From Gemmatimonadota bacterium (GTDB taxonomy: Bacteria; Gemmatimonadota; Gemmatimonadetes; Palauibacterales; KS3-K002), in NCBI GenBank assembly GCA_039586795.1, contig JBDHJS010000001.1:138328-202327 (forward strand): a stretch of DNA of 64,000 bases, read 5' to 3'. The first letter of the stretch is position 1, and each line of letters starts with the position of its first letter. This document shows, in pieces, positions 23,316-42,085 of this stretch. The position numbers and the translations under genes are program-made. The notes under the pieces are model-generated. The model made no database searches. It saw nothing but the letters and a program-made list of their open reading frames with translations, and had not been told where the DNA came from.

Positions 23316-23316
23316 A

Positions 23317-25767: not shown

Positions 25768-25799
25768 TATCAACAGCTTACGGCGGGCACAGCTCTTGC
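25768..25799 (+). promoter_or_regulatory. IHF site plus sigma54 -24/-12 promoter
   Basis: TATCAACAGCTTA (matches WATCAANNNNTTR) then GGGCACAGCTCTTGC (GG-N10-GC), ~115 bp upstream of the CDS. Confidence 0.7.
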
Positions 25800-25915
25800 C
25801 ACATTTAACTTGATGAAACCGCTTCCGACCCGCAAACAGGCGGATTTCGGGCAGGCAAAAGAACACTGGGCCGGCTAAACGGCCGGAGCTTGCTAGCAGA
25901 ATTGCAGCCGCCAAG

Positions 25916-28741
25916 ATGATCGAATCCAAGACCGAGATCGTAGCGCGCCGTTTGCTCACAGCCGCCTCCGCGTTCACCGCGCTGCTGCTGTCGCTGTGCG
26001 CACCAGGGAGCGTTGGCGCGCAAACCAACGACCTGTGCCTGATGTGCCACTCGAATCCGTCATTATTCGAGAGCAATCCGCGGGGCACGGCGCTTGTGGT
26101 CACACAAGAAATGCTCGGCGGCTCGGTGCACAGCCAGGTCGGCTGCACCGATTGCCACCAAGGACTGGCGTTCCCACATCCGGAGGAGATTCCGCCGCCG
26201 ACGTGCGGCCTCTGTCACGACGATCAAACGGTTCAACACGGCGAGTCGCTTCACGGGTTGGCGCAGGCGCGGGGTGACACATTGGCACCGAGCTGCTCGT
26301 ACTGCCACGGCACGCACGAGATGCTCGGTCACTTGAATCCGCAGGCGCCGACCTACGTTTTCAACATCCCGCTGCTGTGCGGTCAATGCCATCACGAAGG
26401 GACGGAGGTAACTCTAACGCATGACATCCCGCAGGATCAGATCCTTGAGAACTACTCGCTTTCGATTCACGGCGAGGGTTTGTTTCGGCAAGGACTGACC
26501 GTGACGGCGGTCTGCACGTCCTGCCACACATCGCATTTCATCCTACCTCACACGGACCCCCGCTCCAGCATTCACGAATCGAACGTGCCAGCGACCTGCA
26601 CCCAGTGTCACGCGCTTATCGAAGAAGTGCATCAACAGTTCATCGAAGGGCGACTGTGGGAAGCGGAACCCCACAAGATTCCGGTCTGCGTGGACTGCCA
26701 TTCACCGCACAAGATTCGGCGAGTGTTCTACGACGCGGGCGTCGCCAACCAGGACTGTTTCGGGTGTCACTCCGATCCGCGCCTGACGATGGAGCGGGAC
26801 GGACAAGCGATCTCGCTGTACGTCGATGAGCAAGCGTACAGTCTCTCCATGCACTCGGGTACGGGCTGCGCCCAATGTCATACAGACGTGGCGCCATCTC
26901 TGTTGGCACGACCCTGCTCTACTTCCGTGGCTACGAACGTAGACTGCGCGATCTGTCACCCCGTGGAAGTCGAGGCACACAATGGCAGCATCCATGGTCA
27001 GCTGGTGGCGGAGGGCGATCCTGATTCGCCGGCCTGCCTGGATTGTCACGACAATCACGCCACGCTTGGCCAGTTGTCGCCGGCGTCACCGACTTACCCG
27101 CGCAACGTTCCGGACCTGTGTGCCCGGTGCCACCGGGAAGGTGAGCCTGGAGCGCGTCGCCTGACCCATGATAGTCCGCTGAACATCATCAACAAATACG
27201 AGATGAGCATCCACGGTAAGGGGCTACTCGAGAGCGGCTTGGTGGTGACGGCGACCTGCTCAAGTTGCCACGGCCCGCATCATGTGCTACCGGCCGAAGA
27301 CCCGGCGTCGTTAGTGCACAGAGACAATGTTACCGGCACCTGCGGTACCTGTCACCACGGCATCGAGGAGATCTATCAGGAGAGCGTGCACTGGGTAGGC
27401 AGGGAGGAATTCGACCCGTCGGAGCACGAACACGACCTGCCGACTTGCGAGAACTGCCATACATCGCACACGATCAGCCGCACGGACCGCACCGATTTCC
27501 GCCTATCGATGATGGATCAGTGCGGCCGCTGCCACACGGAAGAGTCGGAGACGTTCTTCGACACGTTTCATGGCAAGGTATCCCGCCTGGGAGACGCGGG
27601 CGCCGCCAAGTGTTACGACTGCCACGGTACGCACAATATCCTGCCGACCACCGAGCCCGGGTCCACCTTGAGCCGGCGGAACATCATCGAGACGTGCGCT
27701 CAGTGTCACCCCGGCGCCAATCGCAAGTTCACGGGCTACCTGACGCACGCCACCCACCACGACGCCGAGCGGTATCCCTTCCTGTTTTGGGCGTTCTGGG
27801 GGATGACGGCGCTGCTGGTCGGCACTCTGTCGTTTGCCACACTCCACACGCTCGCCTGGCTATTCCGCATGTGGCGGTCACCGGGCGAGTGGGTTCGTCA
27901 CAAGCCGGTAGAAGGTGAGGCGCTGTACCGACGTTTCACGACGTTCGAGCGCTCACTTCACCTGACGATGTTGATCAGCTTCTTCGTGCTGGCGATCACC
28001 GGCATGATCTTGAAGTTCTCGTACACCGGGTGGGCACAATCGCTGGCGAGCTTCGTCGGTGGATTCGCAACTACGGGAGTACTCCACCGTATGGGCGCGA
28101 TCGTGCTGATCACCGTCTTTATGATTCACTTGATCGACGTCTTCATGCGAAAGCAGGCATCGAAGCAGAACTGGCGCGAGTTCATCTTCTCCGACAGCTC
28201 GCTCATGTTCAACAGAAACGACCTGCGGGAGTTTATCGGTTCGATTAAGTGGTTTCTCGGCTGGGGATCGCGGCCCAAGTATGGACGCTTTACCTACTGG
28301 GAGAAATTCGACTACTTCGCAGTCTTCTGGGGAATGTTCATCATCGGGTCGACCGGATTGCTGCTCTGGTTCCCCGAGCTGTTCACGGTGATTCTGCCAG
28401 GGTGGACCGTGAATGTCGCAACCATCTTGCACAGTGACGAAGCGCTGCTGGCCGTGGCGTTCATCTTTACCATCCACTTCTTCAACACGCACTTCCGACC
28501 GGACAAGTTCCCGATGGATCCCGTCATATTCACCGGACGTGTCCCTGTCGAAGAGTTGAAGCACGATAAACCGCGCGAGTACGAGAAGCTGGTTGAAGCG
28601 GGTAAGCTGGAGGAGTACCTGGTTCACCCATATCCGAAAAAGATGCAGCGACTGTTTCGCGTCTTCGGCTTCTCCGCCCTTGCCGTGGGTCTGATCGTGA
28701 TATTCTTGATACTCTACTCGATGCTCAGCGTCTACATGTAG
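25916..28741 (+). CDS. 19-heme cytochrome c fused to FdnI/HydC-like cytochrome b (CbcL-like quinol:cytochrome c oxidoreductase)
   Basis: Signal peptide; 19 CxxCH; C-terminal TM domain with RF...ERSLH, LHR.GA, IHL, YGRFTYWEKFDY, LHSDEALLA, IHFFNTH. Confidence 0.88.
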   Translation: MIESKTEIVARRLLTAASAFTALLLSLCAPGSVGAQTNDLCLMCHSNPSLFESNPRGTALVVTQEMLGGSVHSQVGCTDCHQGLAFPHPEEIPPPTCGLCHDDQTVQHGESLHGLAQARGDTLAPSCSYCHGTHEMLGHLNPQAPTYVFNIPLLCGQCHHEGTEVTLTHDIPQDQILENYSLSIHGEGLFRQGLTVTAVCTSCHTSHFILPHTDPRSSIHESNVPATCTQCHALIEEVHQQFIEGRLWEAEPHKIPVCVDCHSPHKIRRVFYDAGVANQDCFGCHSDPRLTMERDGQAISLYVDEQAYSLSMHSGTGCAQCHTDVAPSLLARPCSTSVATNVDCAICHPVEVEAHNGSIHGQLVAEGDPDSPACLDCHDNHATLGQLSPASPTYPRNVPDLCARCHREGEPGARRLTHDSPLNIINKYEMSIHGKGLLESGLVVTATCSSCHGPHHVLPAEDPASLVHRDNVTGTCGTCHHGIEEIYQESVHWVGREEFDPSEHEHDLPTCENCHTSHTISRTDRTDFRLSMMDQCGRCHTEESETFFDTFHGKVSRLGDAGAAKCYDCHGTHNILPTTEPGSTLSRRNIIETCAQCHPGANRKFTGYLTHATHHDAERYPFLFWAFWGMTALLVGTLSFATLHTLAWLFRMWRSPGEWVRHKPVEGEALYRRFTTFERSLHLTMLISFFVLAITGMILKFSYTGWAQSLASFVGGFATTGVLHRMGAIVLITVFMIHLIDVFMRKQASKQNWREFIFSDSSLMFNRNDLREFIGSIKWFLGWGSRPKYGRFTYWEKFDYFAVFWGMFIIGSTGLLLWFPELFTVILPGWTVNVATILHSDEALLAVAFIFTIHFFNTHFRPDKFPMDPVIFTGRVPVEELKHDKPREYEKLVEAGKLEEYLVHPYPKKMQRLFRVFGFSALAVGLIVIFLILYSMLSVYM

Positions 28742-28772
28742 GCACGGAACCGTCTACATGTAGGCACTGAAC
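28729..28772 (+). repeat. 22-bp tandem duplication (1 mismatch) spanning the stop codon
   Basis: CGTCTACATGTAGGCACGGAAC followed by CGTCTACATGTAGGCACTGAAC. Confidence 0.9.
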
Positions 28773-28779
28773 GTTGACG

Positions 28780-31056
28780 TCAGTGTCCAGCCCGCGCCCA
28801 CGCTACAACTGCCTGTCCCAGAGATATGCCGCCATCGTTGGGCGGCACCTGCCGGTGGGTGAAGACCTCGAAGCCGGCGTCGTCCAGACCGTCGACCATC
28901 AGGCGCGTCAGCAGCGAACTCTGGAAACAGCCTCCGCTCAGCATCACGCGATTGAGCTTGTGCTTGTCGCGGATCAGCTTGCATGTGTCGAGGGTGAAGG
29001 ATGCCACGGTGTTGTGGAAGGCGTTGCTGATCCACTTCACGGGTCGTCCAGCTCGATACTCACACCAGAGGGCGCGCAACGTGGCGGCGGGGTCGATGAC
29101 CCAGCCGTCACCTTCGCGGATGATGTCGTAGGGGAAGTAATCATCCCCCTGCGGGTCGGCGATGGCTTCCAATTCGACGGCTGGCTGGCCTTCGTACTCC
29201 GCCTCGCGGCGCAAATCCAGCAGCGCGGCCGCGGCGTCGAAGAGCCGACCGCATGACGAGGTGAGCGGCATGTTGATCTCCGCGTCAAACTGCCGCCTCA
29301 AGATGATGCGCTCGCCGATGGGGATCGAATCGATGAAGGGCCTGAATTCGGTTTCCGGGATGCCACGACAGAGGCTCCAGATGTAACCCGCCGCCATCCG
29401 GTACGGCTTCTTGATCGCAGCCTCACCGCCGAGCATCGGAGCGTACTTCAAATGCGCCACACGCTCGAAGCCCTTCCAATCCGCGACCAGCAGTTCACCG
29501 CCCCACACAGCGCCGTCCGTACCGTAGCCTGTTCCGTCGAACGCGATCCCAATAACAGGCTCGCTGATTCCGTGCTCGGCCATCACGCTGACGATATGCG
29601 CGTGATGGTGCTGCACGGCGACCCGTAGCGCCTGGCCAGCCGGGTAGTCGTAGGCAACGCGCGTCGACAAGTAGTCGGGGTGCGAGTCGTGGGCGATGAC
29701 CTGCGGCTCGACTCTGAACAGATTTCGATACGTCTCGAGCGCCGAATGAAAGTGTTCAAGTGTCTCGAGGTTTTCGAGGTCGCCGATGTGCTGGCTTAGA
29801 AAGGCCTTGGAGCCTTTGACGAGACAGAACGTGTTCTTCTGTTGAGCGCCTACGGCAAGAACATCCTGCGACGACTCAAAGGGCAGGTCGATTGGCGCAG
29901 GTGCATAGCCACGCGCTCGACGAATCGGTACGACGGCATCGCCCAGGCTTCGCACCACGGAGTCATCGTAGCGGGCGTGAATGTCCCGGTCGTGGAGCAA
30001 GAACTCATCGGCGATTTCGCCGAGTCGCTCAATCGCCTCCTGGTTGCCGATGGCAATCGGTTCCTCGCTAAGGTTGCCGCTCGTCATCACCACGGGGCCA
30101 TCCATCGCCCGCATCAGCAGATGGTGCAGCGGTGTATAAGGAAGCATGACGCCCAGGGTATCCAGGCCGTAAGCGACGTCCTCGGCAATTCCTGTATCGC
30201 GTCGTCGCTTAATCAGCACGATGGGGCGCTCGCGGCTTTCCAGCGCCTGCAACTCGGCGGGACGGACCTTGCACAGACGTTTCGCCCACGCGGCATCGGG
30301 CACCATAAGGGCGAATGGCTTTCCAAATCGTCGCTTACGATTCCGAAGCTCGGCGACCGCCTCCGCGTTCATTGCGTCGCAGGCCAACTGGTAGCCGCCC
30401 AATCCCTTGATCGCAACGATTTGGCCGTTCTTCAGGCAATCGACGCAAGCCTCGATGACGTCCTTCGACGCCGCTTCGGTGTCAGTACCTCCGCTAAGCC
30501 AGATCTTCGGCCCGCAGACCGGGCACGCCACGGGCTGCGCGTGGAATCTTCGGTCCTGCGGATCCTCGTATTCGCGACGGCAATCCTCGCACATAACGAA
30601 CCCACGCATTGTGGTTCGTCTGCGATCGTAGGGGAGTTTCTCGATGATCGTGAAGCGAGGACCGCAGTGCGTGCAGTTGGTGAACGGATAGCGATAGCGC
30701 CGTTCGGACACATCTAGCGTTTCGGCAAGGCAATCGTCGCAGGTCGCGCTGTCCGGTGGAATCGACTGCCAGCCCTCGTCCTCGGTGCTCTCGACGATCT
30801 CGAAGGTGGCATAGCCGTGAAATGTCTTGTTCTCGCTGAGGATTTCGTCAATCCGACACAGAGGAGGAGCGTCCGCGCGAAGTCCTTCTAGAAACGCCCG
30901 CAGCGCGCCTTCATCGCCGTCCAACTCGATTTCCACCTGGGCATTCGTGTTTCGGACCCAGCCGGTCAGGCCGTGACGTTTGGCCAGCTGGTAGATGAAG
31001 GGGCGGAAGCCAACGCCCTGGACGATCCCGCGGACGCGGACACTCAGTCCTTGCAC
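28780..31056 (-). CDS. hypF: Carbamoyltransferase HypF
   Basis: GIVQGVGFRPF acylphosphatase domain, Zn fingers (CDDC...CTHCGPR; CEDC...CPVCGP), QHHHAH, DGTGYG, PPNDGGISLGQ. Confidence 0.97.
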   Translation of the reverse strand: MQGLSVRVRGIVQGVGFRPFIYQLAKRHGLTGWVRNTNAQVEIELDGDEGALRAFLEGLRADAPPLCRIDEILSENKTFHGYATFEIVESTEDEGWQSIPPDSATCDDCLAETLDVSERRYRYPFTNCTHCGPRFTIIEKLPYDRRRTTMRGFVMCEDCRREYEDPQDRRFHAQPVACPVCGPKIWLSGGTDTEAASKDVIEACVDCLKNGQIVAIKGLGGYQLACDAMNAEAVAELRNRKRRFGKPFALMVPDAAWAKRLCKVRPAELQALESRERPIVLIKRRRDTGIAEDVAYGLDTLGVMLPYTPLHHLLMRAMDGPVVMTSGNLSEEPIAIGNQEAIERLGEIADEFLLHDRDIHARYDDSVVRSLGDAVVPIRRARGYAPAPIDLPFESSQDVLAVGAQQKNTFCLVKGSKAFLSQHIGDLENLETLEHFHSALETYRNLFRVEPQVIAHDSHPDYLSTRVAYDYPAGQALRVAVQHHHAHIVSVMAEHGISEPVIGIAFDGTGYGTDGAVWGGELLVADWKGFERVAHLKYAPMLGGEAAIKKPYRMAAGYIWSLCRGIPETEFRPFIDSIPIGERIILRRQFDAEINMPLTSSCGRLFDAAAALLDLRREAEYEGQPAVELEAIADPQGDDYFPYDIIREGDGWVIDPAATLRALWCEYRAGRPVKWISNAFHNTVASFTLDTCKLIRDKHKLNRVMLSGGCFQSSLLTRLMVDGLDDAGFEVFTHRQVPPNDGGISLGQAVVAWARAGH

Positions 31057-31057
31057 G

Positions 31058-31729
31058 CTAGGTGCTCCGTCTACTCTCCTCGATTCTCTCCGTCAGCCAG
31101 TTCTGCCACTCGTCCAAGCCAGCTCCAGAAAACGATGAGGTTGAGAATACTCTCAGGTCAGGATTAACCGATCGAGCGTTCTCGATCGCCGCATCCGCGG
31201 AGAACTGCAGGTGCGGAATTAGATCCGTCTTGGTCAAGATGAAGGCGCTGGCCCTCTTGAACGCCGCGGGATACTTGAGAGGCTTGTCCTCGCCTTCGGT
31301 TACGCTCATCAACACAACCTTCACCGATTCGCCAAGGTCGAACGAAGATGGGCAGACCAGATTGCCCACATTCTCTATGAAGAGAAGATCCAGCCGGTCA
31401 CGATCGATGGCCTCGAGGGATCGCGTAACCTGTTCAGCGTTCAAGTGGCAGCCGCCTCCCGTCTCGATTGCTTCCACAGGCACCCCGTGACGTATCAATC
31501 GCTCGGCATCATTGCGCGTCTGGACGTCACCCGCCACGACCGCCAGCCGCAGGTGGTCTTTAAGCCCATCGATGGTCTTTTCGAGCAATGTCGTCTTTCC
31601 CGACCCCGGCGACGAAATCATGTTGATGCAGAAGATGCCCCGAGCCGTAAGGTCACCACGGATGTGCTCGGCCAGCTGATCGTTGGCACTAAGGACCTTC
31701 TGTTTGACGTCCACGCGCTCGGCGCTCAT
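31058..31729 (-). CDS. hypB: Nickel-incorporation GTPase HypB
   Basis: SSPGSGKTTLLE, TGGGCHL, ENVGNLVCP, EGEDKPLKYP. Confidence 0.97.
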   Translation of the reverse strand: MSAERVDVKQKVLSANDQLAEHIRGDLTARGIFCINMISSPGSGKTTLLEKTIDGLKDHLRLAVVAGDVQTRNDAERLIRHGVPVEAIETGGGCHLNAEQVTRSLEAIDRDRLDLLFIENVGNLVCPSSFDLGESVKVVLMSVTEGEDKPLKYPAAFKRASAFILTKTDLIPHLQFSADAAIENARSVNPDLRVFSTSSFSGAGLDEWQNWLTERIEESRRST

Positions 31730-31735
31730 CGCGTC

Positions 31736-32074
31736 TCACTCCACTTCCAGGTAGCTGACCTGCAGGGTTTGGCCCCCCGACACACCTTGCGCCACAGCCT
31801 TGCACTCCGGGCACTCGAACGGAGCGCGCAGAACCTCGAAACGCAGGCCGCACTCCAGACACGCTGCCAGGCCCGGTTCGCGCTCGATCTCCAGATGCAC
31901 ATCGCCAAAGCGATCCTTGAGCACAACGTCCAGGCAGAACCTGAGCGATTCCACCTCGACACCAGAGAAGACGCCGACCACAACGCCCAACGCCGTCATG
32001 CGGGTCTCGGACGCCTTGGCCAGCTCCCCCTCGCAGATCGAGCCGATTTCCAGGGCCAGCGACATCTCGTGCAC
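31736..32074 (-). CDS. hypA: Nickel metallochaperone HypA
   Basis: MHEMSLA, two CxxC (CLEC, CPEC). Confidence 0.95.
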   Translation of the reverse strand: MHEMSLALEIGSICEGELAKASETRMTALGVVVGVFSGVEVESLRFCLDVVLKDRFGDVHLEIEREPGLAACLECGLRFEVLRAPFECPECKAVAQGVSGGQTLQVSYLEVE

Positions 32075-32099
32075 GCGATCACCTTAGTAAGATTGGCCC

Positions 32100-32165
32100 G
32101 CAAGGGTCAGGCCGCTGAGCGGCGGAAACCCAGGTGCTGTAAACCCTTGCTGTTAAAAGAAATAT
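32100..32165 (-). promoter_or_regulatory. sigma54-type promoter of hypA with upstream IHF-like AT-rich site
   Basis: Minus strand CGGCCTGACCCTTGC (GG-N10-GC, 32114-32100); CAA-N4-TTA near 32139-32150. Confidence 0.55.
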
Positions 32166-32226
32166 GGATTCTCGTTCGCGGCCACGACAACCCCGGTGCG
32201 GCGGGGCGGGACATTCCGCGACGCGG

Positions 32227-32967
32227 CTAGCCCCGCAGGAACCACTGGAAGCCGATCATCGCCAGTAGCGAGGCGGTGACCGCGGTGGCGACGGTACGAC
32301 TGGGGGCGTCCGCCAGGGCTTCTGGGATCAGCTCGGCGAAGCTCATCCAGATCATGGCGCCGGCGGCGAATCCGAGCCCCACCGGCAGGACGGTGGCAAA
32401 CGCAGCGACGAAAAGGAATGCGGGCACCGCCAACAGAGGCTGTGGAAGACTCGAGAAGATGCTCCAGGCGGCGGCCCGTCGCACCGGTTCGCCGCGTGGT
32501 ACGAGCACGAGGCTGATGGCGAGTCCTTCGGGAATATTGTGCACCGCGATGGCCGTCGTGATGAAGACGCCGAGGGCCTCTCCACCGCCGAAGGATACGC
32601 CGACGCCTACGCCTTCGGTGAACGAGTGCACGGTCATCACGCCGATGATGAGCAGAGCCCGGCCGGCATCGACGCCTCGCAGCGTGCCAAGCTGCAGCTC
32701 GCCGTGGCCGTGGAGCCAACGCGTGCTCGAGGCGATGAATGCCACGCCCAACAGCGCACCAGCAATCACCCTCATCAGACCCGCATTCAAACCCTCGTAG
32801 ATGAGGCCGAAGCTGGCAGCGATCATCAGGCCGGCGGCTACGGAGTTAGCCATTGCCAGCCACGTCCGGGTCATGCGCGGCAAGAAGAGGAATGGCACGG
32901 CCCCGAGCCCCGTGGCGAGCGCCGTTACGACGGCGAAGATGAAGACAGTTAGGGGTGTGATTGGCAT
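32227..32967 (-). CDS. ZIP family metal transporter (ZupT/GufA-like)
   Basis: MTVHSFTEG, IAVHNIPEG, GFAAGAM...ELIPE. Confidence 0.92.
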   Translation of the reverse strand: MPITPLTVFIFAVVTALATGLGAVPFLFLPRMTRTWLAMANSVAAGLMIAASFGLIYEGLNAGLMRVIAGALLGVAFIASSTRWLHGHGELQLGTLRGVDAGRALLIIGVMTVHSFTEGVGVGVSFGGGEALGVFITTAIAVHNIPEGLAISLVLVPRGEPVRRAAAWSIFSSLPQPLLAVPAFLFVAAFATVLPVGLGFAAGAMIWMSFAELIPEALADAPSRTVATAVTASLLAMIGFQWFLRG

Positions 32968-33075
32968 GACTTGGATTCACCTGCGATCCGGGTCACTGTC
33001 AGGCTTCGGGGGGATACGGCAAAGGCGCGCCCCCGCAAACCGGGAGCGCGCCATGACGCCAACTCGTCTCTTCGC

Positions 33076-33465
33076 CTAGGCTGGACTGTGGCAGAGCGTG
33101 CAGTATTGATTGTCCCTGCCCTCGTGGTCCGCCGGCGGAGGTTTTACACCGCCATCCGTGTGGCACATGGAGCAACTTTCCTGCCCCTCCACGGCGTGGG
33201 GCATGGCAGGGGGTGCGGTCGTCTGCACCGCGGCATCCGTCGCGTGACACCACAGGCAAACGTCAACAGGCATGCCCTTGTGCGCCTCAGGGGCCGGCTT
33301 CATGCCGCCCTCGGGATTGTGGCACATCAGGCATTGCTCCTGCCCCTCCACCGCGTGTGCCATAGCCGGCGGCGTTACCCATCCCTCCTGCCAGGCGAAG
33401 GCGCCAAGAAACGCGATCGCCGCCAGCAGAACCAGTGAGAAAGCAAACGAACGTTTGTGGTTCAT
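33076..33465 (-). CDS. Small periplasmic tetraheme cytochrome c built from two diheme repeats
   Basis: Signal peptide; CLMCH, CLWCH, CSMCH, CTLCH; PPAM.HAVEGQE.C.MCH present twice. Confidence 0.88.
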   Translation of the reverse strand: MNHKRSFAFSLVLLAAIAFLGAFAWQEGWVTPPAMAHAVEGQEQCLMCHNPEGGMKPAPEAHKGMPVDVCLWCHATDAAVQTTAPPAMPHAVEGQESCSMCHTDGGVKPPPADHEGRDNQYCTLCHSPA

Positions 33466-33804
33466 GTTTCGCTCCCTTGTTAAACCACAGTATAAGACAC
33501 TTCGGGCGCGCACGAGTTTCCTCTGACCACTGCCTATGCCTGCGAAACCTTAGGTGTGTTGACCTTTTCAGGCAAGGGGCAAGTGGCCGAAACACAATAA
33601 CTGTTACAAATAGTCACATGTGTGGCAGAATAGCGACCCCGAGGGAGTCTCTATGACAGGCCAGGCATAGACCAATGAAAAACCGAAACTCAAGTCCGCT
33701 CGCTCGCCCACACTGTCGTCCTCTCTCACACTGCTCGGAGAAGAACAACGCCCGGCTCCATCACTCTACAAGCGGGTGCTGGGCATATCGATAGGTTCGC
33801 GGTT

Positions 33805-35019
33805 CTACTCGCTGTTCTGCAGACTCTGCAGAAAGGCGGAGATGTCGGCGAGGTCTTCAGCCGAAAGTTGGGGCCAAGCGGTCTCCTGCAGATCCGGCGC
33901 GGCATCCATGATGACCGCGTGGTTCCACAGCATCGCTATGGCATCCGCCGGCGACTCGAGGCCAGTGAGCTGTGTGAAGTCGGTGGCGCTGATTCCGCCC
34001 GTTCCCTGGAGCGAGTGACAGCCAAGACATCCCTTGTCGCGAAGCGTCTGCGCTCCGCGCTCGTCGTCACCCGGCTCCGCGAAGTACTCGACGGAGTAGA
34101 GATAGGCGACGAGGTCGGCCATCTCGACGGCGCCGACTTGTGGAAGGCTCAACCCCTTCTGACGGGCTGCTGCCTGCATCTGCGCCCGTTTGTTCCACAT
34201 CGCGGCAGCGAATTCCGTGAGGCCCCACTGACGTCCCTGGGCCGCCAGGTCGGGCGCAACGTAGCCGCCCACGCCCTGAACGGCATGGCATTCGTCGCAG
34301 CGCTTCTCCGCGAAAACGACCCTGCCCGATTGTGCGCGGCCGGGCAGGACGTAGAGTCTTCCCTCGATAGGAACGGTCGAGACGGACTGCAGGTAGGCGA
34401 TTAGATCGAGGATATCCGATCCTTCGAACATCGGCCGCTCAACGCCGGTGAGCTCCATGGCCTGGCTCATCATGGCGCTGTGGTTCCACATGGAGGCGGC
34501 AGCGATGATCGGTGAGCCATAGCGACCGAAGTGGTCGAGCTCCGGGCCGGCGTCGCCGCCGTAATCGCCGATTCGGTGACAGACGAAGCATTTCTTTTCC
34601 GTGTAGAGCTTCTTGCCGGCCGTCACGTCGCCCGGTGCATCGAAGTAGTCGAGGGTAAAGAGAAAACCGATGAGGTCGTCCGCCTCGTCGGCATTGAGCT
34701 CAGGGTATTGTATCCCCTGGACTCTCATACCGTCGACCATGGCGGGCAGATGATTCCAGACATTCGCCGCCAACTCGTAAAACGAGCGTCTTCGGGGGAT
34801 GCGGGCCAGATCGGGCGCCGACGTGCCGCCGATCCCGTTCACGGCATGACAGCGGATGCAGCCTTTGGACTCAAAGACCTCCGAACCCGCAAGAGGATCC
34901 TGCATTGGCTCCGTCGCCTGCCCAACTGCGACCCGAGGAGTCAACAAGACACCCAGGCCAGAGCCCAATGCGAAGATCGTGGCGTTGGATCTGATAAAAC
35001 GGGAAAGAACGGTAACCAT
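33805..35019 (-). CDS. Cytochrome c with four tandem class I monoheme domains
   Basis: CIRCH, CFVCH, CDECH, CLGCH, each in a G..VF..K.C..CH....G...APDL...A..MWN(H)..M...DL..YL type repeat. Confidence 0.88.
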   Translation of the reverse strand: MVTVLSRFIRSNATIFALGSGLGVLLTPRVAVGQATEPMQDPLAGSEVFESKGCIRCHAVNGIGGTSAPDLARIPRRRSFYELAANVWNHLPAMVDGMRVQGIQYPELNADEADDLIGFLFTLDYFDAPGDVTAGKKLYTEKKCFVCHRIGDYGGDAGPELDHFGRYGSPIIAAASMWNHSAMMSQAMELTGVERPMFEGSDILDLIAYLQSVSTVPIEGRLYVLPGRAQSGRVVFAEKRCDECHAVQGVGGYVAPDLAAQGRQWGLTEFAAAMWNKRAQMQAAARQKGLSLPQVGAVEMADLVAYLYSVEYFAEPGDDERGAQTLRDKGCLGCHSLQGTGGISATDFTQLTGLESPADAIAMLWNHAVIMDAAPDLQETAWPQLSAEDLADISAFLQSLQNSE

Positions 35020-35145
35020 GATCCCCCCAGCGGTCTCGACGGCGCGGGGCTGGGTCTGAGGCGGCCCGCTTGCCGTCGCGGTGAGTGGTTCCGTAGGTAT
35101 ATACGAAATTAAGGCGTTGTTGGTTTGGGAGCCAGCAATTGATGT

Positions 35146-35180
35146 GAAAAGTCGCCGGACGCGACTGGCGTCCGGCGACT
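35146..35180 (-). terminator. Rho-independent terminator after the nonaheme gene
   Basis: 13-bp stem AGTCGCCGGACGC/GCGTCCGGCGACT followed by TTT on the minus strand. Confidence 0.75.
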
Positions 35181-35206
35181 CGCTTGTGCCTCTAGATTCT
35201 CGTACG

Positions 35207-36055
35207 CTATCCGCCCGGATTGAGCGGATCGCCGAAGTGGCAAAGGCCACAGAACGCAGGGTTCTTGTTCTGAAGCTTCTGAGCGTCGAATCCAGGGCCG
35301 TGGGGGTTGATGCGGCGGCCGAGCTTGGCCGAATGGCACTGCAGACAATACTGCTGCGCGTGGCACGCCTGGCAGCTTTCCAGACCCTGCCTTGCCGCCT
35401 GCCCATGACCGAACTCGAAGCCTCCGTTCCTGTTGTGGTATCCAGTGTTCGTCCTCAGGTCTCTGCTCGCCCGACCGAGCCCCGAGTGACACTCCAGACA
35501 AAAAGCCTGCGGGTTATGGCAGCTGGCGCATTCCGTTTCCTGATTGAACGCCGCTGTCGCGTGGTTCTGCATGAAGTTGAACGGGTGGTATAGATCGACG
35601 TCACGCCGCTGTGAGGCGGCCCGCGGCCGCTCCAGCGTCTCGGCGCCCAGGTGGCAAACCTGGCACTGCTGCTCGACCACGTGACACACGGCGCAGCTTC
35701 CGGTGGCCGAGGCCGCCAGTGCGCGGTGGTCATCAAGGAAGAACAGGGTGTGACTCGGCGGGGCCGGGAACGTCAGGCCCGCGACATAATCCGCTACCGC
35801 CGGATCCGAGTTCAGTGCCTGAATCTCCGGCACATCCTGAGCGTTGACATGACAGCCGCTACAATACTCACGAGCATGGCAGACCGAACACATCTGGATA
35901 TTGGATTGGGCCTGTCCGCCGTGCGCCGATAAGAATTCGGCGGTCTGGTGGTTTTCCGGCTTAGGCATCTGCCCGGTCTGCGCGAGTCCGAGCTGGACCG
36001 TCGCCGCCACCAGCAGAGCCGCTAGTGTCGCAGAGAAAGTAGCACGGTGCCTCAC
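35207..36055 (-). CDS. Periplasmic nonaheme cytochrome c
   Basis: Signal peptide (GLA-Q); 9 CxxCH, mostly in CxxCH-N4/5-CxxCH pairs; start overlaps the porin stop (GTGA). Confidence 0.9.
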   Translation of the reverse strand: MRHRATFSATLAALLVAATVQLGLAQTGQMPKPENHQTAEFLSAHGGQAQSNIQMCSVCHAREYCSGCHVNAQDVPEIQALNSDPAVADYVAGLTFPAPPSHTLFFLDDHRALAASATGSCAVCHVVEQQCQVCHLGAETLERPRAASQRRDVDLYHPFNFMQNHATAAFNQETECASCHNPQAFCLECHSGLGRASRDLRTNTGYHNRNGGFEFGHGQAARQGLESCQACHAQQYCLQCHSAKLGRRINPHGPGFDAQKLQNKNPAFCGLCHFGDPLNPGG

Positions 36056-37563
36056 GGTGTCCTCCCGGGTTCAGAACCAAGGTAGTAAGAAAAGCCAACA
36101 GCGCTGCGCCACTGGCTCCAGTCCTGGATGGCCTGGTCGCCGCGATTGTCGTGATCGTAGCGGTCGACGGAGAACCAGACCGTACCCTGCCGTGTCCGCC
36201 AGCGGAGGTCAAGACCCAAGCCCCACACTCGACCCTGGTTCAGCCGAAACTCCTCCAACTGCTGCCAGGCGCTGAATCGCCCACCCAGCGTAAGCTGGTC
36301 GTGGGGCTTCATGGCGACGCGAAGATCGCCCGAGTTGAGGGCGGCGCCGAACCCATGGTTTCGCCAGTACCCGCCGTCGAATGACCACATCTCGTTCAGA
36401 ACCCAGGTCCCCCGAATCCCGAATCGATAGTCGCGGTCGGTAGTCGTGAAGAAGGCCACCTCGGCGTCCGTCTCTTCGTACTGTCTCCGCTCCAGCCAGA
36501 GCTTGAAGCTTAGATTCGGCAAAGGCCTGATCGCGGTGGACAGGTTCCAGCCGTTGTAAGCGACCGGGCTGAAGGCGTACCAGATTTCCTGGAGGCTGAA
36601 GACCGGCCGGTAACGCAGGTAGCCGCCCTCAGCGTAGAACATCGGGTTGATCTGCCACCCGGCTCTCAATCCCGCCTTGCCCCAATCGCCGTAAGCCAGA
36701 TCGTAGTCGGCGTGGCCCAGCAGAGAGACCGCCGGAATAACGTACCAGCTTCCCTCGAAACCGATCCGCTCCGTGGCGATATAGTCGCTCTGGCCGGTGT
36801 ACTGGCGTTGGTAGACGACCTGCAGCGACGAGCTGGTCGAGGGCCGCGCCGACGCCCTCAGCCCGATCAGCCAGCCGTTGTCACTTGGCTTCAGGTCGCC
36901 GAGCGGATCGAAAATGCTGGAGTTGATCGGCACGGGTATGCCGCGCGCCAGAGCTCGTCCGCCGTACAGCTCGACCTGGGTCCACCACGGGTTGAAGCGG
37001 ACGAGTGCCGAGCCTCCGTCATAGCCGAAGAAGCCGAGGCCATTGACGGTGTAGTCCCGGCCCAGCCGGAACCGATACTGTCTACGGTTGAGCTCCGCAT
37101 AAGCGTTTAGCACGGCGACTTCCGGCTCGACTGGCCAGAAGTTCTCGTCTGCGCCGAACGCGGTCTGAAAGCGCGTGTTCGCGTAGAACCGCAGGCCCTC
37201 CACACCGAATCCGAAAACGTTGAGATCGGCGTCGAGCACTGATGGGTAAGTCTTCAGTGTCGGACCCGATCCGTAGTAGTAGCAGTACTCCGAGCCTGTG
37301 GGACACGTGACGAAGATGTTATCTGCCTTGAAGCGACCGTCGTTGGTAACTCGGACATCACTGATCGGCACGCTGTCACGCTGGAGCGACTGCCCTTCGA
37401 CATACTGTACTCGTGAGGAGATGCGCATTCGCCACTGCTGCGCCTGGAGCGCCGATGCGCTCCAGAGGCACCAGGCAACGGCGACGCCGGTGAACGCGAC
37501 CGCTGTTCTCGTGAACCGCAGTCGGGTCCCGGCACACCTCGATGCTTGGCCTGAGACCCTCAC
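36052..37563 (-). CDS. Outer-membrane beta-barrel protein (putative cytochrome-conduit porin)
   Basis: Signal peptide (LQA-Q); ~460-aa mature chain of aromatic/Gly-rich alternating strands (FRLGR, FDGGYW, GLGLDLRW, AVGFSYYLG); lies between multiheme genes. Confidence 0.78.
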   Translation of the reverse strand: MRVSGQASRCAGTRLRFTRTAVAFTGVAVAWCLWSASALQAQQWRMRISSRVQYVEGQSLQRDSVPISDVRVTNDGRFKADNIFVTCPTGSEYCYYYGSGPTLKTYPSVLDADLNVFGFGVEGLRFYANTRFQTAFGADENFWPVEPEVAVLNAYAELNRRQYRFRLGRDYTVNGLGFFGYDGGSALVRFNPWWTQVELYGGRALARGIPVPINSSIFDPLGDLKPSDNGWLIGLRASARPSTSSSLQVVYQRQYTGQSDYIATERIGFEGSWYVIPAVSLLGHADYDLAYGDWGKAGLRAGWQINPMFYAEGGYLRYRPVFSLQEIWYAFSPVAYNGWNLSTAIRPLPNLSFKLWLERRQYEETDAEVAFFTTTDRDYRFGIRGTWVLNEMWSFDGGYWRNHGFGAALNSGDLRVAMKPHDQLTLGGRFSAWQQLEEFRLNQGRVWGLGLDLRWRTRQGTVWFSVDRYDHDNRGDQAIQDWSQWRSAVGFSYYLGSEPGRTP

Positions 37564-37593
37564 AATGTCCTCCCGGTACCTGGTTTATCGGTT

Positions 37594-37620
37594 CCCGGTC
37601 CGCGCGGTGCGCGGACCGGG
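37594..37620. other. Intercistronic 12-bp hairpin
   Basis: CCCGGTCCGCGC-GGT-GCGCGGACCGGG; related hairpin at 39310-39342. Confidence 0.7.
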
Positions 37621-37639
37621 CAATTTCGTGCATCTCCTG

Positions 37640-39127
37640 CTACGGCAGACCGTACGAATCCTGAACGGCAGCGATCGAAGCAGCGAGAATCGACTTGAGC
37701 CACTCCGGCGAGTGAACGCCGTTACCGCTGGCCTTGTGCGCTGATACGCTGACGCCGAACACGTTGAAACCAGACCACCATAGACGATCCGACGTGAAGG
37801 CGAGCTGAGCGTTCCATAGCGCACCCTCCGCCACCGTAATCAGTTGGTCCGACGGATCCAGCTCAAGCGTGTCACCCTGCGCTACCACCATGGGCAGCAG
37901 GCCGGCGTCGGCAACGTCCATTGTGTCATTGGCGTTCGAGTCGACCCACAACTGGTCGAGCAACGCGTTGATCTCGTCCCACGTCTCGTTGTACTTGTCG
38001 ATCGGGTCTGCGTGGCAGCCCTCGCAGGCGGTCCAGTCGCGCTCATCGTCCGCACAATCGTGCTCGCCTGAGGGAATCCCGTTCTCGTCCAAGCAGGGGA
38101 TCGCTTCGAACAGATGGCCCACCGATTGGAAGAGGAAGTCGCCCGCTGAGTCCGAGACCTCGAACATGTTGACGTGACAGGTGACGCAGACTTCTGGGTT
38201 TAGCACCGGGCTGGCGTGCCAGTGGAGGCCTGGGTCTTCGAAGCCTGCCGGGATCCAGCCCACGTCCTCATTGAGCACCAGCAGCCCCTGCGCCGCGTGC
38301 GGGCCACGACGATTCGGCGGCGTGCCACGGTTCGCGTGACAGCGGACGCAGAGGTGATCCGTAGTTGAAGTCGAGATCTCGGCGCGCAAATTCGCCTCGA
38401 AGTCGGAGCCGTGCGGATCATGGCAGACCACGCAGACGATCGGCTGGAGAGCGTCCGGGATGAACTTCTCGATGTAGTCCGACGTTTCGAGGAATTTTAT
38501 CTCCAGCGACTTGCGGCCTTCGTGGCATTGGTTGCACCCGTCGCGGCCAGCTGGGTACGAGTTCAAAGTCCCGTGCCTCGACGTCCGCCACTGTTCCACG
38601 AACGGGTGGTGCGTGCCGGAGTGGCATTCACCACAGCCCGTCGTCGCCGCCGTGTCCGCCGTGATCGACGCTAGCGGCTGCGTCGTGGTCGGCGAGTTGA
38701 TGTGATCCCAACCCGAGCTGTGGCAGTTCTCGCATTGGACATCTAGGTAGCGGGGATCGCCGCTTCTTGCGACGGTTGGATCGTTGGTTGCCAGATAGCC
38801 GCTCGCTCCCGTGTCCGGGTTGCCATTCTGGTTGGTCGTGTGGCAACCCTCGCAGAACGCTTGCGCGCCGGGGTTAGCCTGTAGCGTCTCCCAGGCATGT
38901 TGGTGCCCGGTGTCAGACCACCCAGACTGGAAGGTTGCGTGACAATTGCCGCAGGTGGTGAGCTGCGCTTCGGCAACAGCGTAGCCTAAGTACAGCGACA
39001 CTGTGTCGGGCGGAACCGTGCCGTCGGCAAAGGTAGACTCGTCGCTACACCCCACCGCGAAAACCCCCAGCAGGGCCAGCAACGCGACCCACCTCAGGCG
39101 CTCTCTTACTGTAGCTCTCTCACTCAC
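37640..39127 (-). CDS. Nonaheme lipoprotein cytochrome c (paralog B)
   Basis: Lipobox AVG-C; 9 CxxCH; helical C-terminus with GNGVHSP..L..IL..SI; TGGAGG RBS. Confidence 0.9.
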   Translation of the reverse strand: MSERATVRERLRWVALLALLGVFAVGCSDESTFADGTVPPDTVSLYLGYAVAEAQLTTCGNCHATFQSGWSDTGHQHAWETLQANPGAQAFCEGCHTTNQNGNPDTGASGYLATNDPTVARSGDPRYLDVQCENCHSSGWDHINSPTTTQPLASITADTAATTGCGECHSGTHHPFVEQWRTSRHGTLNSYPAGRDGCNQCHEGRKSLEIKFLETSDYIEKFIPDALQPIVCVVCHDPHGSDFEANLRAEISTSTTDHLCVRCHANRGTPPNRRGPHAAQGLLVLNEDVGWIPAGFEDPGLHWHASPVLNPEVCVTCHVNMFEVSDSAGDFLFQSVGHLFEAIPCLDENGIPSGEHDCADDERDWTACEGCHADPIDKYNETWDEINALLDQLWVDSNANDTMDVADAGLLPMVVAQGDTLELDPSDQLITVAEGALWNAQLAFTSDRLWWSGFNVFGVSVSAHKASGNGVHSPEWLKSILAASIAAVQDSYGLP

Positions 39128-39372
39128 AATCCGCCTCCAGAAGAACGGGTGAAAGATGAATGCTGGATGTGAGACTCGGTTTATGGCGACTGTTGTGGTC
39201 GGGTCGAAACAGCACCCGCCTGGTTACAGACAACCTTCAGGCCCTTCGTCTCGATTCAAGATATGATGGCGAATCCCGTTCCCTCTCTTCAGCCATCAAA
39301 AGCGTGACAGCCCGGTCCACACCTTCAGGGCACGGACCGGGCTATGCACACATACTTAATCAGTCTCCCCGC

Positions 39373-40851
39373 CTACGGCGTGAAGTACCAATCGTTCACG
39401 GCATCAATCGATGCGAGCAGCAGCTCGATCAGGTAGTCCGGGTTGTGCACCCCGTTACCGCTCATCTTGTGGGACGAGAACCGGATGCCGAACACATAGG
39501 AGTTGCCACCCCACCACAAGCGGTCGTCCGTGTAGGCGACCTGCCCATTGAACAGTGCGCCCTCCGCAACCGTCACCAAATCGTCGGACGGATCGAGTTC
39601 CACCGTGTCACCCAGCGCGACCACCATGGGCAGCAGGCCCACATCGGCCACATCCATAGTGTCGTTCGCATTAGAGTCGACCCAAAGGATGTCGAGCAGC
39701 ACGTTGATCGAGTCCCACACTGCGTTGTAGTCCGCGATCACCGAGGCCTCATCCGTGTGACACGTCGTGCAGGCGGTCCAGTCACGATCCTCATCGGCGC
39801 ACGGTCCCTCTGTGGGAATGCCCTGGGCATCCAAACATGGGATCGGCTCGAAAAGGTGGCCCACGTTGGTGAAGACGTGATCGCCCGCCGTGTCCGTGAC
39901 CGAGAACATGTTCACGTGGCAGGTCACGCAGAGGCCCTCGTTCAGGATCCCACCGTGCGCGTGGATGCCCGGATCCTCGAAACCAGCCGGGATCCAGCCC
40001 ACGTCGTCGGCCAGCACCAGGAACCCCTGCCCTGCGTGCGTCCCGCGTGTCGACGGAGGCACCGCGTGCCGCGAATGACAACGAACGCACAGGTGGTCAA
40101 ACGACGCGACGTCGATCGGAGCCCGCAGGTTCGCGGCGTAGTCTGTCCCGTGCGGGTCGTGACAGACCACGCAGAGAATCGGGTAGAGGTTGTCCGGATC
40201 GGATTTCTCGACGTAGTTGGACGTCTCGTAGAACTTGACCTCCATCGCCACCCGGCCTTCGTGGCAGGCGTTGCAGCCATCACGGCCAGCTGGGTAGGAG
40301 TTCACTTGCCCGTGCCGCGACTCCTGCCATTGCTCGACGAACGGGTGATGTGAGCCGTTGTGACACTCTCCGCAGCCCGTCGTCGCCGCCGTGTCCGCCA
40401 CGATCGAGCAGAGCGGCGCGTTCGTCAGGTCCGGATCGGCAGCGTGCGTCGCGCCCCCGCCGTGGCAGCTCTCGCACTGCACGTCGTGGAACACGGAGTC
40501 CCCGCTGGCCAGATAGCCGACATCCGTCGTATCCGGGTTGCCCGCCTGGTTCACCGTGTGGCAACCCTCGCAGAACTCCTGTGCGCCGGGGTTGGCCTGC
40601 AGAGTCTCCCAGGCATGCGCATGACCCGTCGTCGCCCATCCGGACTGGTACGTCGCGTGGCACAGGCCACAGGTCGTGAACCCCTCATCCTCGACGAGGT
40701 CCGTGTAGCCCAGGTAGCCTTGCCCGCCCTGCGGCGGAACGATTCCCGGGTCCTCACAGGCCGGACAATCGTCGTCGCAAGCGACGAAGCCCAGGGCCAG
40801 GACCAGCGGCACAGCGAGCAGCCAAGTTCTCCTTGTAGCTCTCTCTCTCAC
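39373..40851 (-). CDS. Nonaheme lipoprotein cytochrome c (paralog A)
   Basis: Lipobox FVA-C; 9 CxxCH; GNGVHNPDY..ELL..SI; long blocks identical to paralog B. Confidence 0.9.
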   Translation of the reverse strand: MRERATRRTWLLAVPLVLALGFVACDDDCPACEDPGIVPPQGGQGYLGYTDLVEDEGFTTCGLCHATYQSGWATTGHAHAWETLQANPGAQEFCEGCHTVNQAGNPDTTDVGYLASGDSVFHDVQCESCHGGGATHAADPDLTNAPLCSIVADTAATTGCGECHNGSHHPFVEQWQESRHGQVNSYPAGRDGCNACHEGRVAMEVKFYETSNYVEKSDPDNLYPILCVVCHDPHGTDYAANLRAPIDVASFDHLCVRCHSRHAVPPSTRGTHAGQGFLVLADDVGWIPAGFEDPGIHAHGGILNEGLCVTCHVNMFSVTDTAGDHVFTNVGHLFEPIPCLDAQGIPTEGPCADEDRDWTACTTCHTDEASVIADYNAVWDSINVLLDILWVDSNANDTMDVADVGLLPMVVALGDTVELDPSDDLVTVAEGALFNGQVAYTDDRLWWGGNSYVFGIRFSSHKMSGNGVHNPDYLIELLLASIDAVNDWYFTP

Positions 40852-40961
40852 AGTCGCCTCCAGAGAAACAAAGGTTGATACGAACTACGAAAGTAGAAAA
40901 TAGAACAAATTCAGGCGCTGAATCCGCCAAACTGGAAACAAAGCATCAACCGCATATCGGA

Positions 40962-41020
40962 TGCACTAATCAGGCCGAAGCTGACACACGAGCTAACCTC
41001 TTCAGGAGTAATGGGTTAGC
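40962..41020 (-). promoter_or_regulatory. sigma54-type promoter of the porin-cytochrome operon with upstream palindrome
   Basis: Minus strand CGGCCTGATTAGTGCA (GG-N10-GC, 40977-40962); GCTAACC-N15-GGTTAGC at 40992-41020. Confidence 0.5.
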
Positions 41021-41335
41021 CAAGGCGTCCCTGCCGAGCAGGGGTTCGGCAAGGGGCAGAGTGTCACAAAGAGGGGCTAATCAGCGAGGAATCATTCTCA
41101 ACATTGATAGTGGCGCCGCTCCATTATATGAAGACAGTGAGACATCTGGCAATAGGCTGGCGTGCTTCCCACGGCCGTCCGGGCTAGCCGCTCGTGGAGC
41201 TGGGATCCCCCCTATATGCCGGCCCCGACACAATCTTTTCACGACCCTGGCCAGCGCTGGCGCCATGCAACGGCATGGTGTAGAATAGGGACGCACATCG
41301 CAAATAAAACTCAAGTACTTAGACAGGAAGGCCCC

Positions 41336-41920: not shown

Positions 41921-41948
41921 GGGCACTCGAAGAGCAACAAGAAAAAGT

Positions 41949-41990
41949 GGAGAGGACGCTTGGGTTATGCGTCCTCTCCCTTTTTGTTTT
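41949..41990 (+). terminator. Rho-independent terminator (probably bidirectional)
   Basis: GGAGAGGACGC-N9-GCGTCCTCTCC then TTTTTGTTTT; A-tract on the other side. Confidence 0.85.
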
Positions 41991-42085
41991 GCAGTCTGTT
42001 GAACACTGAATATTGTACACCCATCACGGAACGTTGAAGGGACCTTCAAACGTTGGACGGTCTCTGTCCGATGTTCAATGTTCGG

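Follow-up and report, generated by a model that had tools for sequence, protein, structure and literature searches.

A cluster of multiheme cytochrome genes around an outer-membrane barrel gene was analysed in a 64,000-nucleotide stretch of contig JBDHJS010000001.1 from a Gemmatimonadota bacterium (assembly GCA_039586795.1); this whole stretch is called the window, and positions refer to it unless another contig is named. The genes at 25916-28741 and 33076-40851 probably (at about 60%, in our estimate) encode a porin-cytochrome conduit leading from the quinone pool to acceptors outside the cell, a complex that is proposed by analogy, from the architecture of the cluster only. A preliminary description of the sequence had proposed an extracellular electron transfer (EET) pathway analogous to known ones but differently built. 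The anatomy, the phylum and the co-occurrence of the genes speak for that proposal, but the function is a prediction, and the novelty lies in the outer-membrane cassette as a variant of porin-cytochrome systems, not in the inner-membrane part, which is already catalogued. The organism had been called an apparent member of the Gemmatimonadota; 77 of the 80 related loci kept from a public genome collection are so titled (the other three as 'uncultured bacterium'), and the source names of homologs agree. The seven genes, with the stop-to-stop open reading frames (ORFs) of the six cytochromes on the same strands, are:

25916..28741, + strand: cytochrome of 941 amino acids with 19 hemes and a C-terminal cytochrome b-like domain, CbcL/MtoC/MtrH-type (stop-to-stop ORF 25817-28738, 19 CxxCH)
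33076..33513, - strand: small tetraheme cytochrome with two di-heme repeats, likely start ATG 33465, Pfam C7 and paired-CXXCH (stop-to-stop ORF 33079-33549, 4 CxxCH)
33805..35019, - strand: four-domain class I cytochrome c with four monoheme domains (PF00034, four times) and a signal peptide (stop-to-stop ORF 33808-35454, 4 CxxCH)
35207..36055, - strand: periplasmic 9-heme cytochrome of 282 amino acids with a signal peptide (stop-to-stop ORF 35210-36070, 9 CxxCH)
36052..37563, - strand: predicted barrel of 503 amino acids from an unnamed Gemmatimonadota family, with ~22-24 strands and no plug domain of its own in an AlphaFold2 (AF2) model
37640..39127, - strand: lipoprotein cytochrome A, 9 hemes, 495 amino acids, lipobox LGVFAVG-C with lipid Cys27 (stop-to-stop ORF 37643-39223, 9 CxxCH)
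39373..40851, - strand: lipoprotein cytochrome B, 9 hemes, 492 amino acids, with a lipobox, a tandem paralog 63% identical to A (stop-to-stop ORF 39376-40884, 9 CxxCH)

When all six frames of the whole window were scanned for stop-to-stop ORFs of 80 amino acids or more, nine ORFs had at least one CxxCH motif. Six of them lie in the region 25.8-40.9 kb and hold 19+4+4+9+9+9 = 54 motifs, exactly the counts given in the preliminary description; outside this region, the window has seven CxxCH spread over three ORFs. By our own estimate from amino-acid frequencies, far below one motif would be expected by chance in ~3,900 residues. The outer limits drawn earlier had to be corrected, the likely starts being 25916 instead of 25768 and 40851 instead of 41020, and the region 28780-32967 also contains hypF, hypB, hypA and a ZIP transporter gene that had gone unmentioned. 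As for the view of the locus as one ~15 kb island, the genes are indeed clustered, but the 19-heme fusion is linked more loosely to the outer-membrane module. An 'island' in the sense of horizontal acquisition is ruled out by the even GC level (0.59-0.64 throughout the window) and by synteny kept across genera.

The barrel ORF has no match in Pfam, NCBIfam or PDB sequence searches, and the 87 homologs found in a word-indexed search are nearly all without Pfam domains; a profile of 39 homologs retrieved 796 cluster representatives (E<=1e-3) among 1.84 billion proteins. An atlas search returned unnamed Gemmatimonadota clusters only, the nearest named clusters being generic beta-barrel and porin families (score 0.92, to be taken as a lead only). 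The AF2 model, built on the 39-sequence alignment (mean pLDDT 83.5, pTM 0.73), is all-beta from residue 43 to residue 496, with 22 long strand elements, two of which (~24 residues) are long enough for hairpins, and with nothing plug-like. Foldseek matched it to outer-membrane barrels only among PDB entries (FimD, E 4.7e-11; MtrB 6r2q_B at rank 8, E 2.2e-9). VIA-align scores were Z 17-20 for 22-strand TonB-dependent receptor barrels, of which the barrel part only was aligned, Z 17.5-18.6 for the FimD and PapC usher barrels (FimD 18.6) and Z 16.2 for MtrB (rmsd 4.8 over 354 residues); many porins of 16-18 strands scored lower in the all-representatives search, at about Z 12.7-15.9. The top structural matches are outer-membrane barrels of 22-26 strands, and the gene at 36052-37563 is predicted from its model to encode a wide, plug-less outer-membrane barrel of ~22-24 strands, so that the beta-barrel on which the preliminary description depended is borne out by AF2, Foldseek and VIA-align alike. 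Among known proteins, wide barrels of this kind are always filled by something else. The family is seemingly restricted to Gemmatimonadota, the named homologs and retained loci all being of that phylum or unclassified. The barrel homologs in three genomes (G137:C26, G026:C3 and G292:C9) have one in-frame TGA within the match, and that of G292 is in three pieces, suggesting a broken gene.

What may fill the barrel is encoded directly after it. The GTG start of the 9-heme gene overlaps the TGA stop of the barrel gene (GTGA) and GGGAGG stands just upstream, so that the two genes are, by their sequence, translationally coupled; a barrel gene thus adjoins a periplasmic multiheme gene, as in porin-cytochrome systems. 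The 9-heme protein has ~29 amino acids per heme, which leaves no space for a catalytic domain. Across 15 aligned orthologs the nine CxxCH motifs are conserved throughout, together with nine more histidines, which are enough for bis-histidine ligation of every heme. Neither the protein nor its profile found a relative in PDB sequence searches. It is predicted to be a wire threaded into the barrel.

The association of these genes is widespread. The barrel gene is present in 22 of 41 relatives (19 of the 24 in the window's own family), and 21 of the 41 have both the barrel gene and the 9-heme gene, always adjacent; 19 have neither and none has the 9-heme gene by itself. The only relative with the barrel alone, G021, is 65% complete and its match ends at a contig end. 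Within 8 kb of the barrel, a 9-heme gene is found in 73 of the 80 loci and a lipoprotein cytochrome gene in 65, most of the misses being at short contigs. In a sample of the phylum, 133 of 301 genomes and 68 of 126 genera have the barrel, which is almost never found outside the class; of the 16 genomes in genus g13, one has a match. A core of three genes, for the lipoprotein cytochrome, the barrel and the 9-heme cytochrome, is thus kept within the Gemmatimonadota, and the co-occurrence in related genomes with which the earlier proposal was to stand or fall holds. Distant members, with barrels of 30-35% identity, have a longer cassette that encodes an 8-9-heme lipoprotein, an 18-21-heme cytochrome, the barrel and a 16-heme periplasmic cytochrome. 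The order of lipoprotein cytochrome, barrel and periplasmic cytochrome is common to both forms, but in the window no 18-21-heme gene separates the barrel from the lipoprotein genes, of which there are two paralogs, and class I and tetraheme cytochromes are added. Its 9-heme protein matches the C-terminal half of the 16-heme protein of the longer cassette (42% identity, residues 225-459).

Both 9-heme lipoprotein ORFs have a lipobox, and lipid Cys27 is invariant in 34 aligned homologs. When a profile of this family was compared with the PDB, the best matches by far were OcwA (6I5B, E 6.6e-16) and OmhA (6QVM, E 3.6e-12), followed by MtrA (6R2Q chain A, E 1.2e-7) and, more weakly, by cytochrome c554 (4e-5), octaheme nitrite reductase (9e-5) and HAO (3e-4). 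The two solved proteins are cell-surface terminal reductases of two Gram-positive iron reducers and are described as one clade of the NrfA/HAO/c554 superfamily (PMC9250108). With detectable homology and nine CxxCH, for a clade with a nine- or eleven-heme core, both lipoproteins are homologs of OcwA and OmhA at the level of sequence. Among 120 listed homologs, about half have 8 CxxCH and about half have 9. The AF2 model of lipoprotein A has three long C-terminal helices, a feature described for the superfamily of OcwA and OmhA (PMC9250108). Two five-coordinate hemes, with conserved distal histidines that do not bond, are a further trait of OcwA and its clade. The lipoprotein pair is also found on contigs of two close relatives (P0089/P0093 and P0090/P0094). 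Most genera have one lipoprotein copy where the window has two. The start of lipoprotein B (40750-40851, - strand) reads C-D-D-D-C-P-A-C, with an extra CxxC pair after the lipid cysteine, seen as CDDDCPA in two listed homologs and as CSDDCPA in one.

From the lipid cysteine on, lipoprotein A reads CSDES and lipoprotein B CDDDC, and the commonest forms in the family are CTDDE, CTDTE and CTDEE. A recognisable lipobox is present in 91 of the 120 listed homologs, of which 93% have aspartate or glutamate at +3, 75% at +4 and 49% at +5; in a genome background of 231 crude lipoprotein candidates the shares are 25% at +3 and 27% at +4, and both of these positions are acidic in 22 of the 231. In the Bacteroidetes, with which the Gemmatimonadota are grouped in the FCB superphylum (PMC9769843), surface exposure of lipoproteins is driven by an export signal of the forms SDDDD, SDDFE and K-(D/E)2 (PMC5080379). 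CSDES in lipoprotein A has the same makeup, a polar residue at +2 followed by at least two acidic residues. The resemblance is suggestive, and surface exposure of the lipoproteins is proposed from this resemblance only.

The inner-membrane end of the proposed conduit would be the 19-heme fusion, which has a signal peptide, CxxCH motifs from residue 41 to residue 598 and then five to six hydrophobic segments between residues 622 and 934. Its heme halves are 42% identical to each other, with Pfam domains C7, c3 and paired-CXXCH, and its cytochrome b matches are weak (PF01292, Ni-hydrogenase cytochrome b, 25.9 bits against a cut-off of 30.1; TIGR01583, formate-dehydrogenase-gamma, E 6e-10, below the curated cut-off). 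A multiheme N-terminus followed by a cytochrome b domain is the layout of the CbcL/MtoC/MtrH family, which is described as having 3-23 CxxCH, an FdnI/HydC-like cytochrome b domain and about six helices, and as biochemically uncharacterised, CbcL included (PMC6295460). The Gemmatimonadetes protein MAF27600.1 (951 amino acids, 19 motifs, 6 helices), listed as a homolog in Table S2 of that 2018 paper, has the same heme count and layout as the fusion and nearly identical inter-heme spacing. The architecture given in the preliminary description was right, but the fusion is a member of this already catalogued family, and hence it is not a new component; it is predicted to be a quinol oxidase or a quinone reductase. 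In G015, G023 and G001 the fusion gene is found on the far side of the hyp genes, and in G026 it adjoins the barrel gene directly. Relatives at the level of paralogs lie a few kb from the barrel in some distant loci, and directly upstream of it in L052, L057 and L095. An 11-heme paralog of the fusion is encoded elsewhere in the same genome (C23:163207-165162).

Three soluble periplasmic cytochromes had been proposed. The 9-heme and class I cytochromes have the signal peptides to fit, but the tetraheme protein (33076-33513) has an uncleaved-looking hydrophobic segment at residues 22-40 and may be membrane-anchored instead of soluble. The tetraheme gene was found in 14 of the 80 loci and the class I gene in 18. 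The longest ORF of the latter reaches 35406, with the likely start at 35019, and three paralogs are encoded elsewhere in the genome (contigs C80 and C97), with a paralog on C80 flanked by ORFs that are Rieske-like and cytochrome b-like, as judged from N-terminal sequences only. At 19138-19998 of the corresponding locus L099 of G001, a relative in the same genus, there are two tandem tetraheme genes and two four-domain class I genes, compared with one of each in the window.

In the proposed conduit, the 19-heme fusion would be the partner of quinol in electron exchange at the inner membrane, a role already proposed for CbcL and MtoC, and its heme domain of ~560 residues would reach far into the periplasm. 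The small tetraheme cytochrome and the four-domain class I cytochrome would relay electrons through the periplasm to the 9-heme cytochrome, which would carry them across the outer membrane inside the plug-less barrel, as MtrA does in MtrB. One or both of the lipoprotein cytochromes would be flipped to the surface and docked on the barrel, with minerals, humics or partner cells as acceptors of the electrons that they deliver.

Between the 19-heme gene and the other cytochrome genes, three hydrogenase maturation genes bear on the likely electron donor:

28780..31056, - strand: hypF, carbamoyltransferase (HypF_C_2, zf-HYPF, Sua5 and acylphosphatase domains)
31058-31729, - strand: hypB, nickel insertion (PF02492)
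31736-32074, - strand: hypA, nickel insertion (PF01155)

In G001 (locus L099, G001:C10:98001-118000), an 8-kb block stands exactly where the window has a gap of 38 bp between the 19-heme gene and hypF, and encodes a maturation protease, a cytochrome b, the large and small subunits of a NiFe hydrogenase, HypD and HypE (hyaABCD and hypDE). Because a complete NiFe uptake hydrogenase operon occupies the same spot in G001, the hyp genes of the window are likely to be leftovers of a lost uptake hydrogenase and to stand outside the conduit. G015, G016 and G023 also have no NiFe large subunit, and G015 and G023 keep the same hydrogenase-less layout as the window. Among 97 loci examined for hydrogenase, seven from other lineages have both subunits within 8 kb of the barrel, and this recurrent neighbourhood hints at hydrogen as an electron donor of the pathway, in the past or, among relatives, to this day. 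The 19-heme fusion was considered as the missing cytochrome b of the hydrogenase and is ruled out in that role, the G001 operon having a cytochrome b gene of its own (L099 8131-8787, the product 37% identical to that of L094). One of the loci, L046, belongs to a named relative, Candidatus Kutchimonas denitrificans, which is placed in the order Palauibacterales (PMC10469786). For a member of this order, hydrogen-driven metal respiration is proposed in that paper from hyaABCD alone, the proposal naming no conduit.

Contigs with exact pieces of the barrel gene, the 9-heme gene and both lipoprotein genes occur in four runs of RNA libraries, which come from three studies and were chosen for containing the cluster (labels: sediment, marine sediment or seawater metagenome). 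In run X16 part of the 19-heme gene is present too, a gene not included in the stretch by which the runs were picked. These pieces attest presence and are no proof of transcription, as the contigs show neither strand nor level; RNA libraries can carry DNA. For the neighbouring 15.4 kb (41200-56600), at 97% likeness, X11, X16 and X20 have no exact full pieces and X17 has four, a difference that we do not count as evidence of expression. This control for DNA carry-over is uninformative because missing cover in contig data proves nothing and because the runs were picked for the cluster.

If there is a conduit at all, the chance that it runs outward, in the reducing direction, is slightly better than even. 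That direction is favoured because the lipoproteins have terminal reductases as their nearest relatives of solved structure, and because a hydrogen-uptake hydrogenase, which is an electron source and would feed the quinone pool, stands beside the cluster in G001 and seven distant loci; the class I cytochrome c favours the inward one. Domains of its type are usually high-potential carriers that feed oxidases, and a four-domain member in the operon is compatible with uptake of electrons no less than with their export. For uptake, the donor would be Fe(II), Mn(II), reduced humics, a partner cell or a cathode, and the electrons would enter through the same conduit, going via the class I cytochrome to terminal oxidases or denitrification enzymes and via the 19-heme fusion uphill to quinones, as is proposed for MtoAB-MtoC. 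Class I paralogs beside Rieske-like and cytochrome b-like genes on C80 are consistent with such a flow, as is the reported presence of the CbcL/MtoC/MtrH family among Fe(II) oxidisers as well as Fe(III) reducers (PMC6295460). For relatives within the order, a facultatively aerobic and denitrifying metabolism is described, but also a lack of carbon-fixation genes (PMC10469786), which would make Fe(II) lithoautotrophy unlikely and mixotrophy still possible. With both the reductase kinship and the hydrogenase neighbourhood pointing the other way, we regard the inward reading as unlikely.

Several observations weigh against a conduit in either direction or against parts of it. The stretches retrieved from G016 and G012 did not show the 19-heme fusion, no sequence kinship to Mtr or to any solved protein was detected for the barrel and the 9-heme cytochrome, and the AF2 model of lipoprotein A is poor in the heme domain (pLDDT 56.7). 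Lipoprotein B has aspartate at +2, which by the rule for Escherichia coli means retention in the inner membrane. The superfamily of the lipoproteins holds the true enzymes NrfA, octaheme nitrite reductase, HAO and MccA, its members show nitrite or NO reductase activity in vitro, and OcwA itself reduces nitrite in vitro (PMC9250108). One might therefore dispense with a trans-membrane wire and regard the lipoproteins as periplasm-facing enzymes of the kind of octaheme nitrite reductase, MccA or OTR, for which nitrite, hydroxylamine or sulfur compounds would be the substrates reduced, the other cytochromes the electron supply and the barrel a channel for substrate or product. The aspartate of lipoprotein B would suit this arrangement, as would the weaker profile matches to octaheme nitrite reductase, HAO and cytochrome c554 and the richness of the lineage in nitrogen-oxide respiration (PMC10469786). 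The by far best profile matches are nonetheless two cell-surface proteins, the acidic motif is strongly enriched over the genome background, and the barrel is translationally coupled to a bis-histidine 9-heme protein. A plug-less barrel of 22-24 strands is also much wider than a small-solute channel needs to be, and small anions would hardly require a dedicated 22-strand pore. The enzymatic alternative is weakened by these features and seems improbable to us.

The absence from this genome (97.8% complete) of any match to a NiFe large subunit or hypD also counts against a hydrogen-fed conduit here, and on account of it the hydrogenase argument rests on relatives. With hypA, hypB and hypF kept, the same absence could mean that the cluster is a decaying remnant, in which the cytochrome genes no longer form a working pathway now that the hydrogenase is gone. 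Such decay is very improbable, given that the seven genes have intact frames, all heme motifs and the conserved histidines, that the hydrogenase-less layout is the same in G015 and G023, and that exact gene pieces occur in RNA libraries of three studies.

On the preferred reading of the cluster as a conduit, the Gemmatimonadota might possess a wiring of their own, its parts without kinship to Mtr in sequence: a plug-less barrel of 22-24 strands, a new wire of 9-16 hemes, and lipid-anchored reductases of the OcwA type that an export signal like that of the Bacteroidetes flips to the surface. The ancestral locus would also have encoded an uptake hydrogenase of the hyaABCD type, so that hydrogen could be burnt with solid Fe(III) or Mn(IV); this fuller picture is tentative, and we hold it to be possible rather than probable. 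To our knowledge, reductases of the OcwA type have been known so far from Gram-positive cell walls. In soils and sediments the Gemmatimonadota are one of the common phyla. If the reading is true, an abundant soil and sediment phylum would be an overlooked player in mineral redox cycling, and the cassette would be a concrete, clonable candidate for mineral reduction or oxidation by its members. A conduit of this kind would be a third independently built solution beside Mtr and Pcc, and would link a terminal reductase of Gram-positive type to a diderm envelope. From the hydrogenase genes beside the cluster in relatives, hydrogen-dependent metal respiration is suggested as a physiology that can be tested.

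Other features flank the cluster:

32227..32967, - strand: ZIP-family metal transporter (PF02535), beside the hyp genes
41123..41152, - strand: promoter-like site upstream of lipoprotein B (TTGCCA, 18 nt, TATAAT; 11 of 12 matches), no more than a lead
41333..41920, + strand: divergent small lipoprotein of no known family, lipobox VAAG-C

ZIP orthologs, 80% identical, are in the same place in 5 of the 80 loci. An ArsR-type regulator and a heavy-metal P-type ATPase are encoded at 22878-25521, directly upstream of the 19-heme gene, in an order that is the same in G001 and G015, and a cation-diffusion-facilitator exporter at 46237-47121; with the ZIP transporter and the P-type ATPase, metal-homeostasis genes surround the cluster. 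The small lipoprotein has no Pfam match, and the atlas gives unnamed lipoprotein clusters only. It is conserved beside the cluster in near relatives, being found in 8 of the 80 loci and in L011, L012, L016 and L018, and may or may not belong to the system. The scan for promoters and terminators in the region did not exceed the expectation from shuffled sequence (2 promoter-like sites, compared with a shuffled mean of 1.8).

A second small redox cluster is found in the window at 54556-59038 on the - strand. Its products are a lipoprotein of 413 amino acids with five hemes (CSDDSAD from the lipid cysteine on; PF22113, 33 bits), a SoxA/CCP-like protein with one heme (55819-56598), a radical SAM protein (57029-67) and a beta-propeller protein with six blades (57677-59038). 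RNA-library run X17 contains an exact piece of the gene for the 5-heme lipoprotein. The whole genome has 39 ORFs with at least 3 CxxCH and 319 motifs in total. One stretch (C13:13748-25016) has 18-, 17- and 13-heme genes followed by a gene for a 524-amino-acid protein with a signal peptide, maybe another barrel; a second (C80:26138-38181) has 9-, 21- and 9-heme ORFs together with a paralog of the four-domain class I cytochrome; C79:66171-80563 is a further multiheme stretch.

The preliminary description knew of no characterised EET system in this phylum, and none was found in a full-text search of the literature. The reports that this search brought up contain general mentions only for Gemmatimonadota, namely of multiheme proteins, Cyc2, three MtrABC operons, DFE-like genes and a single homolog of CbcL, and do not describe the cassette. 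Genes resembling DFE_0461-0465 of Desulfovibrio ferrophilus are reported by FeGenie in marine Gemmatimonadota (PMC11316326); as a model for the present cluster these are ruled out, since they belong to clusters with NHL beta-propellers and no porin (PMC9769857).

The cluster resembles the Pcc complexes of Geobacter, OmbB-OmaB-OmcB and relatives (Shi et al. 2014, PMC4245776; Liu et al. 2014, PMC4282303), in having genes for a barrel, a periplasmic multiheme cytochrome and a lipoprotein multiheme cytochrome in one place. Pcc barrels are described as having 18-22 predicted strands and Pcc periplasmic cytochromes 5-14 hemes (PMC4245776), ranges that include the 9-heme protein and place the barrel at the upper limit or just above it. 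The likeness to Pcc is judged from architecture, the lipoproteins being in the OcwA/OmhA clade instead; the only Geobacter-related NCBIfam model to give a match, decaheme GSU2203, scored far below its cut-off.

With MtrCAB (PDB 6R2Q), MtoAB and PioAB, the cluster shares the proposed arrangement, in which a cytochrome wire runs through a wide barrel and a lipoprotein cytochrome caps it at the cell surface. The barrel differs in size from MtrB, having 503 amino acids and ~22-24 strands compared with a chain of 649 residues and what we take to be 26 strands. Its profile has no match to 6r2q_B at E<=10, and no Pfam or NCBIfam model of that family matches it; the structural likeness is that of a general barrel fold, since the Z score for MtrB is below those for FimD and the TonB-receptor barrels. 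The wire has nine hemes where MtrA and DmsE are decaheme proteins, with no match to TIGR03508 and no profile match to 6r2q_A, and PF22113 (MtrC domains II/IV) is below its cut-off in the cluster.

The Geobacter pathway is served by the quinone-linked cytochrome b/multiheme fusion CbcL, to which the 19-heme fusion is comparable; domain order and a six-helix b-type domain are shared with CbcL, MtoC and MtrH and the heme count is within the family range, but Geobacter CbcL has nine hemes and the fusion has 19. Similarly, the lipoproteins have nine hemes in about 500 residues like OcwA of Thermincola potens, which together with OmhA of Carboxydothermus ferrireducens (6QVM) is their solved relative, but they are predicted to be lipid-anchored in a diderm cell and are encoded beside a barrel.

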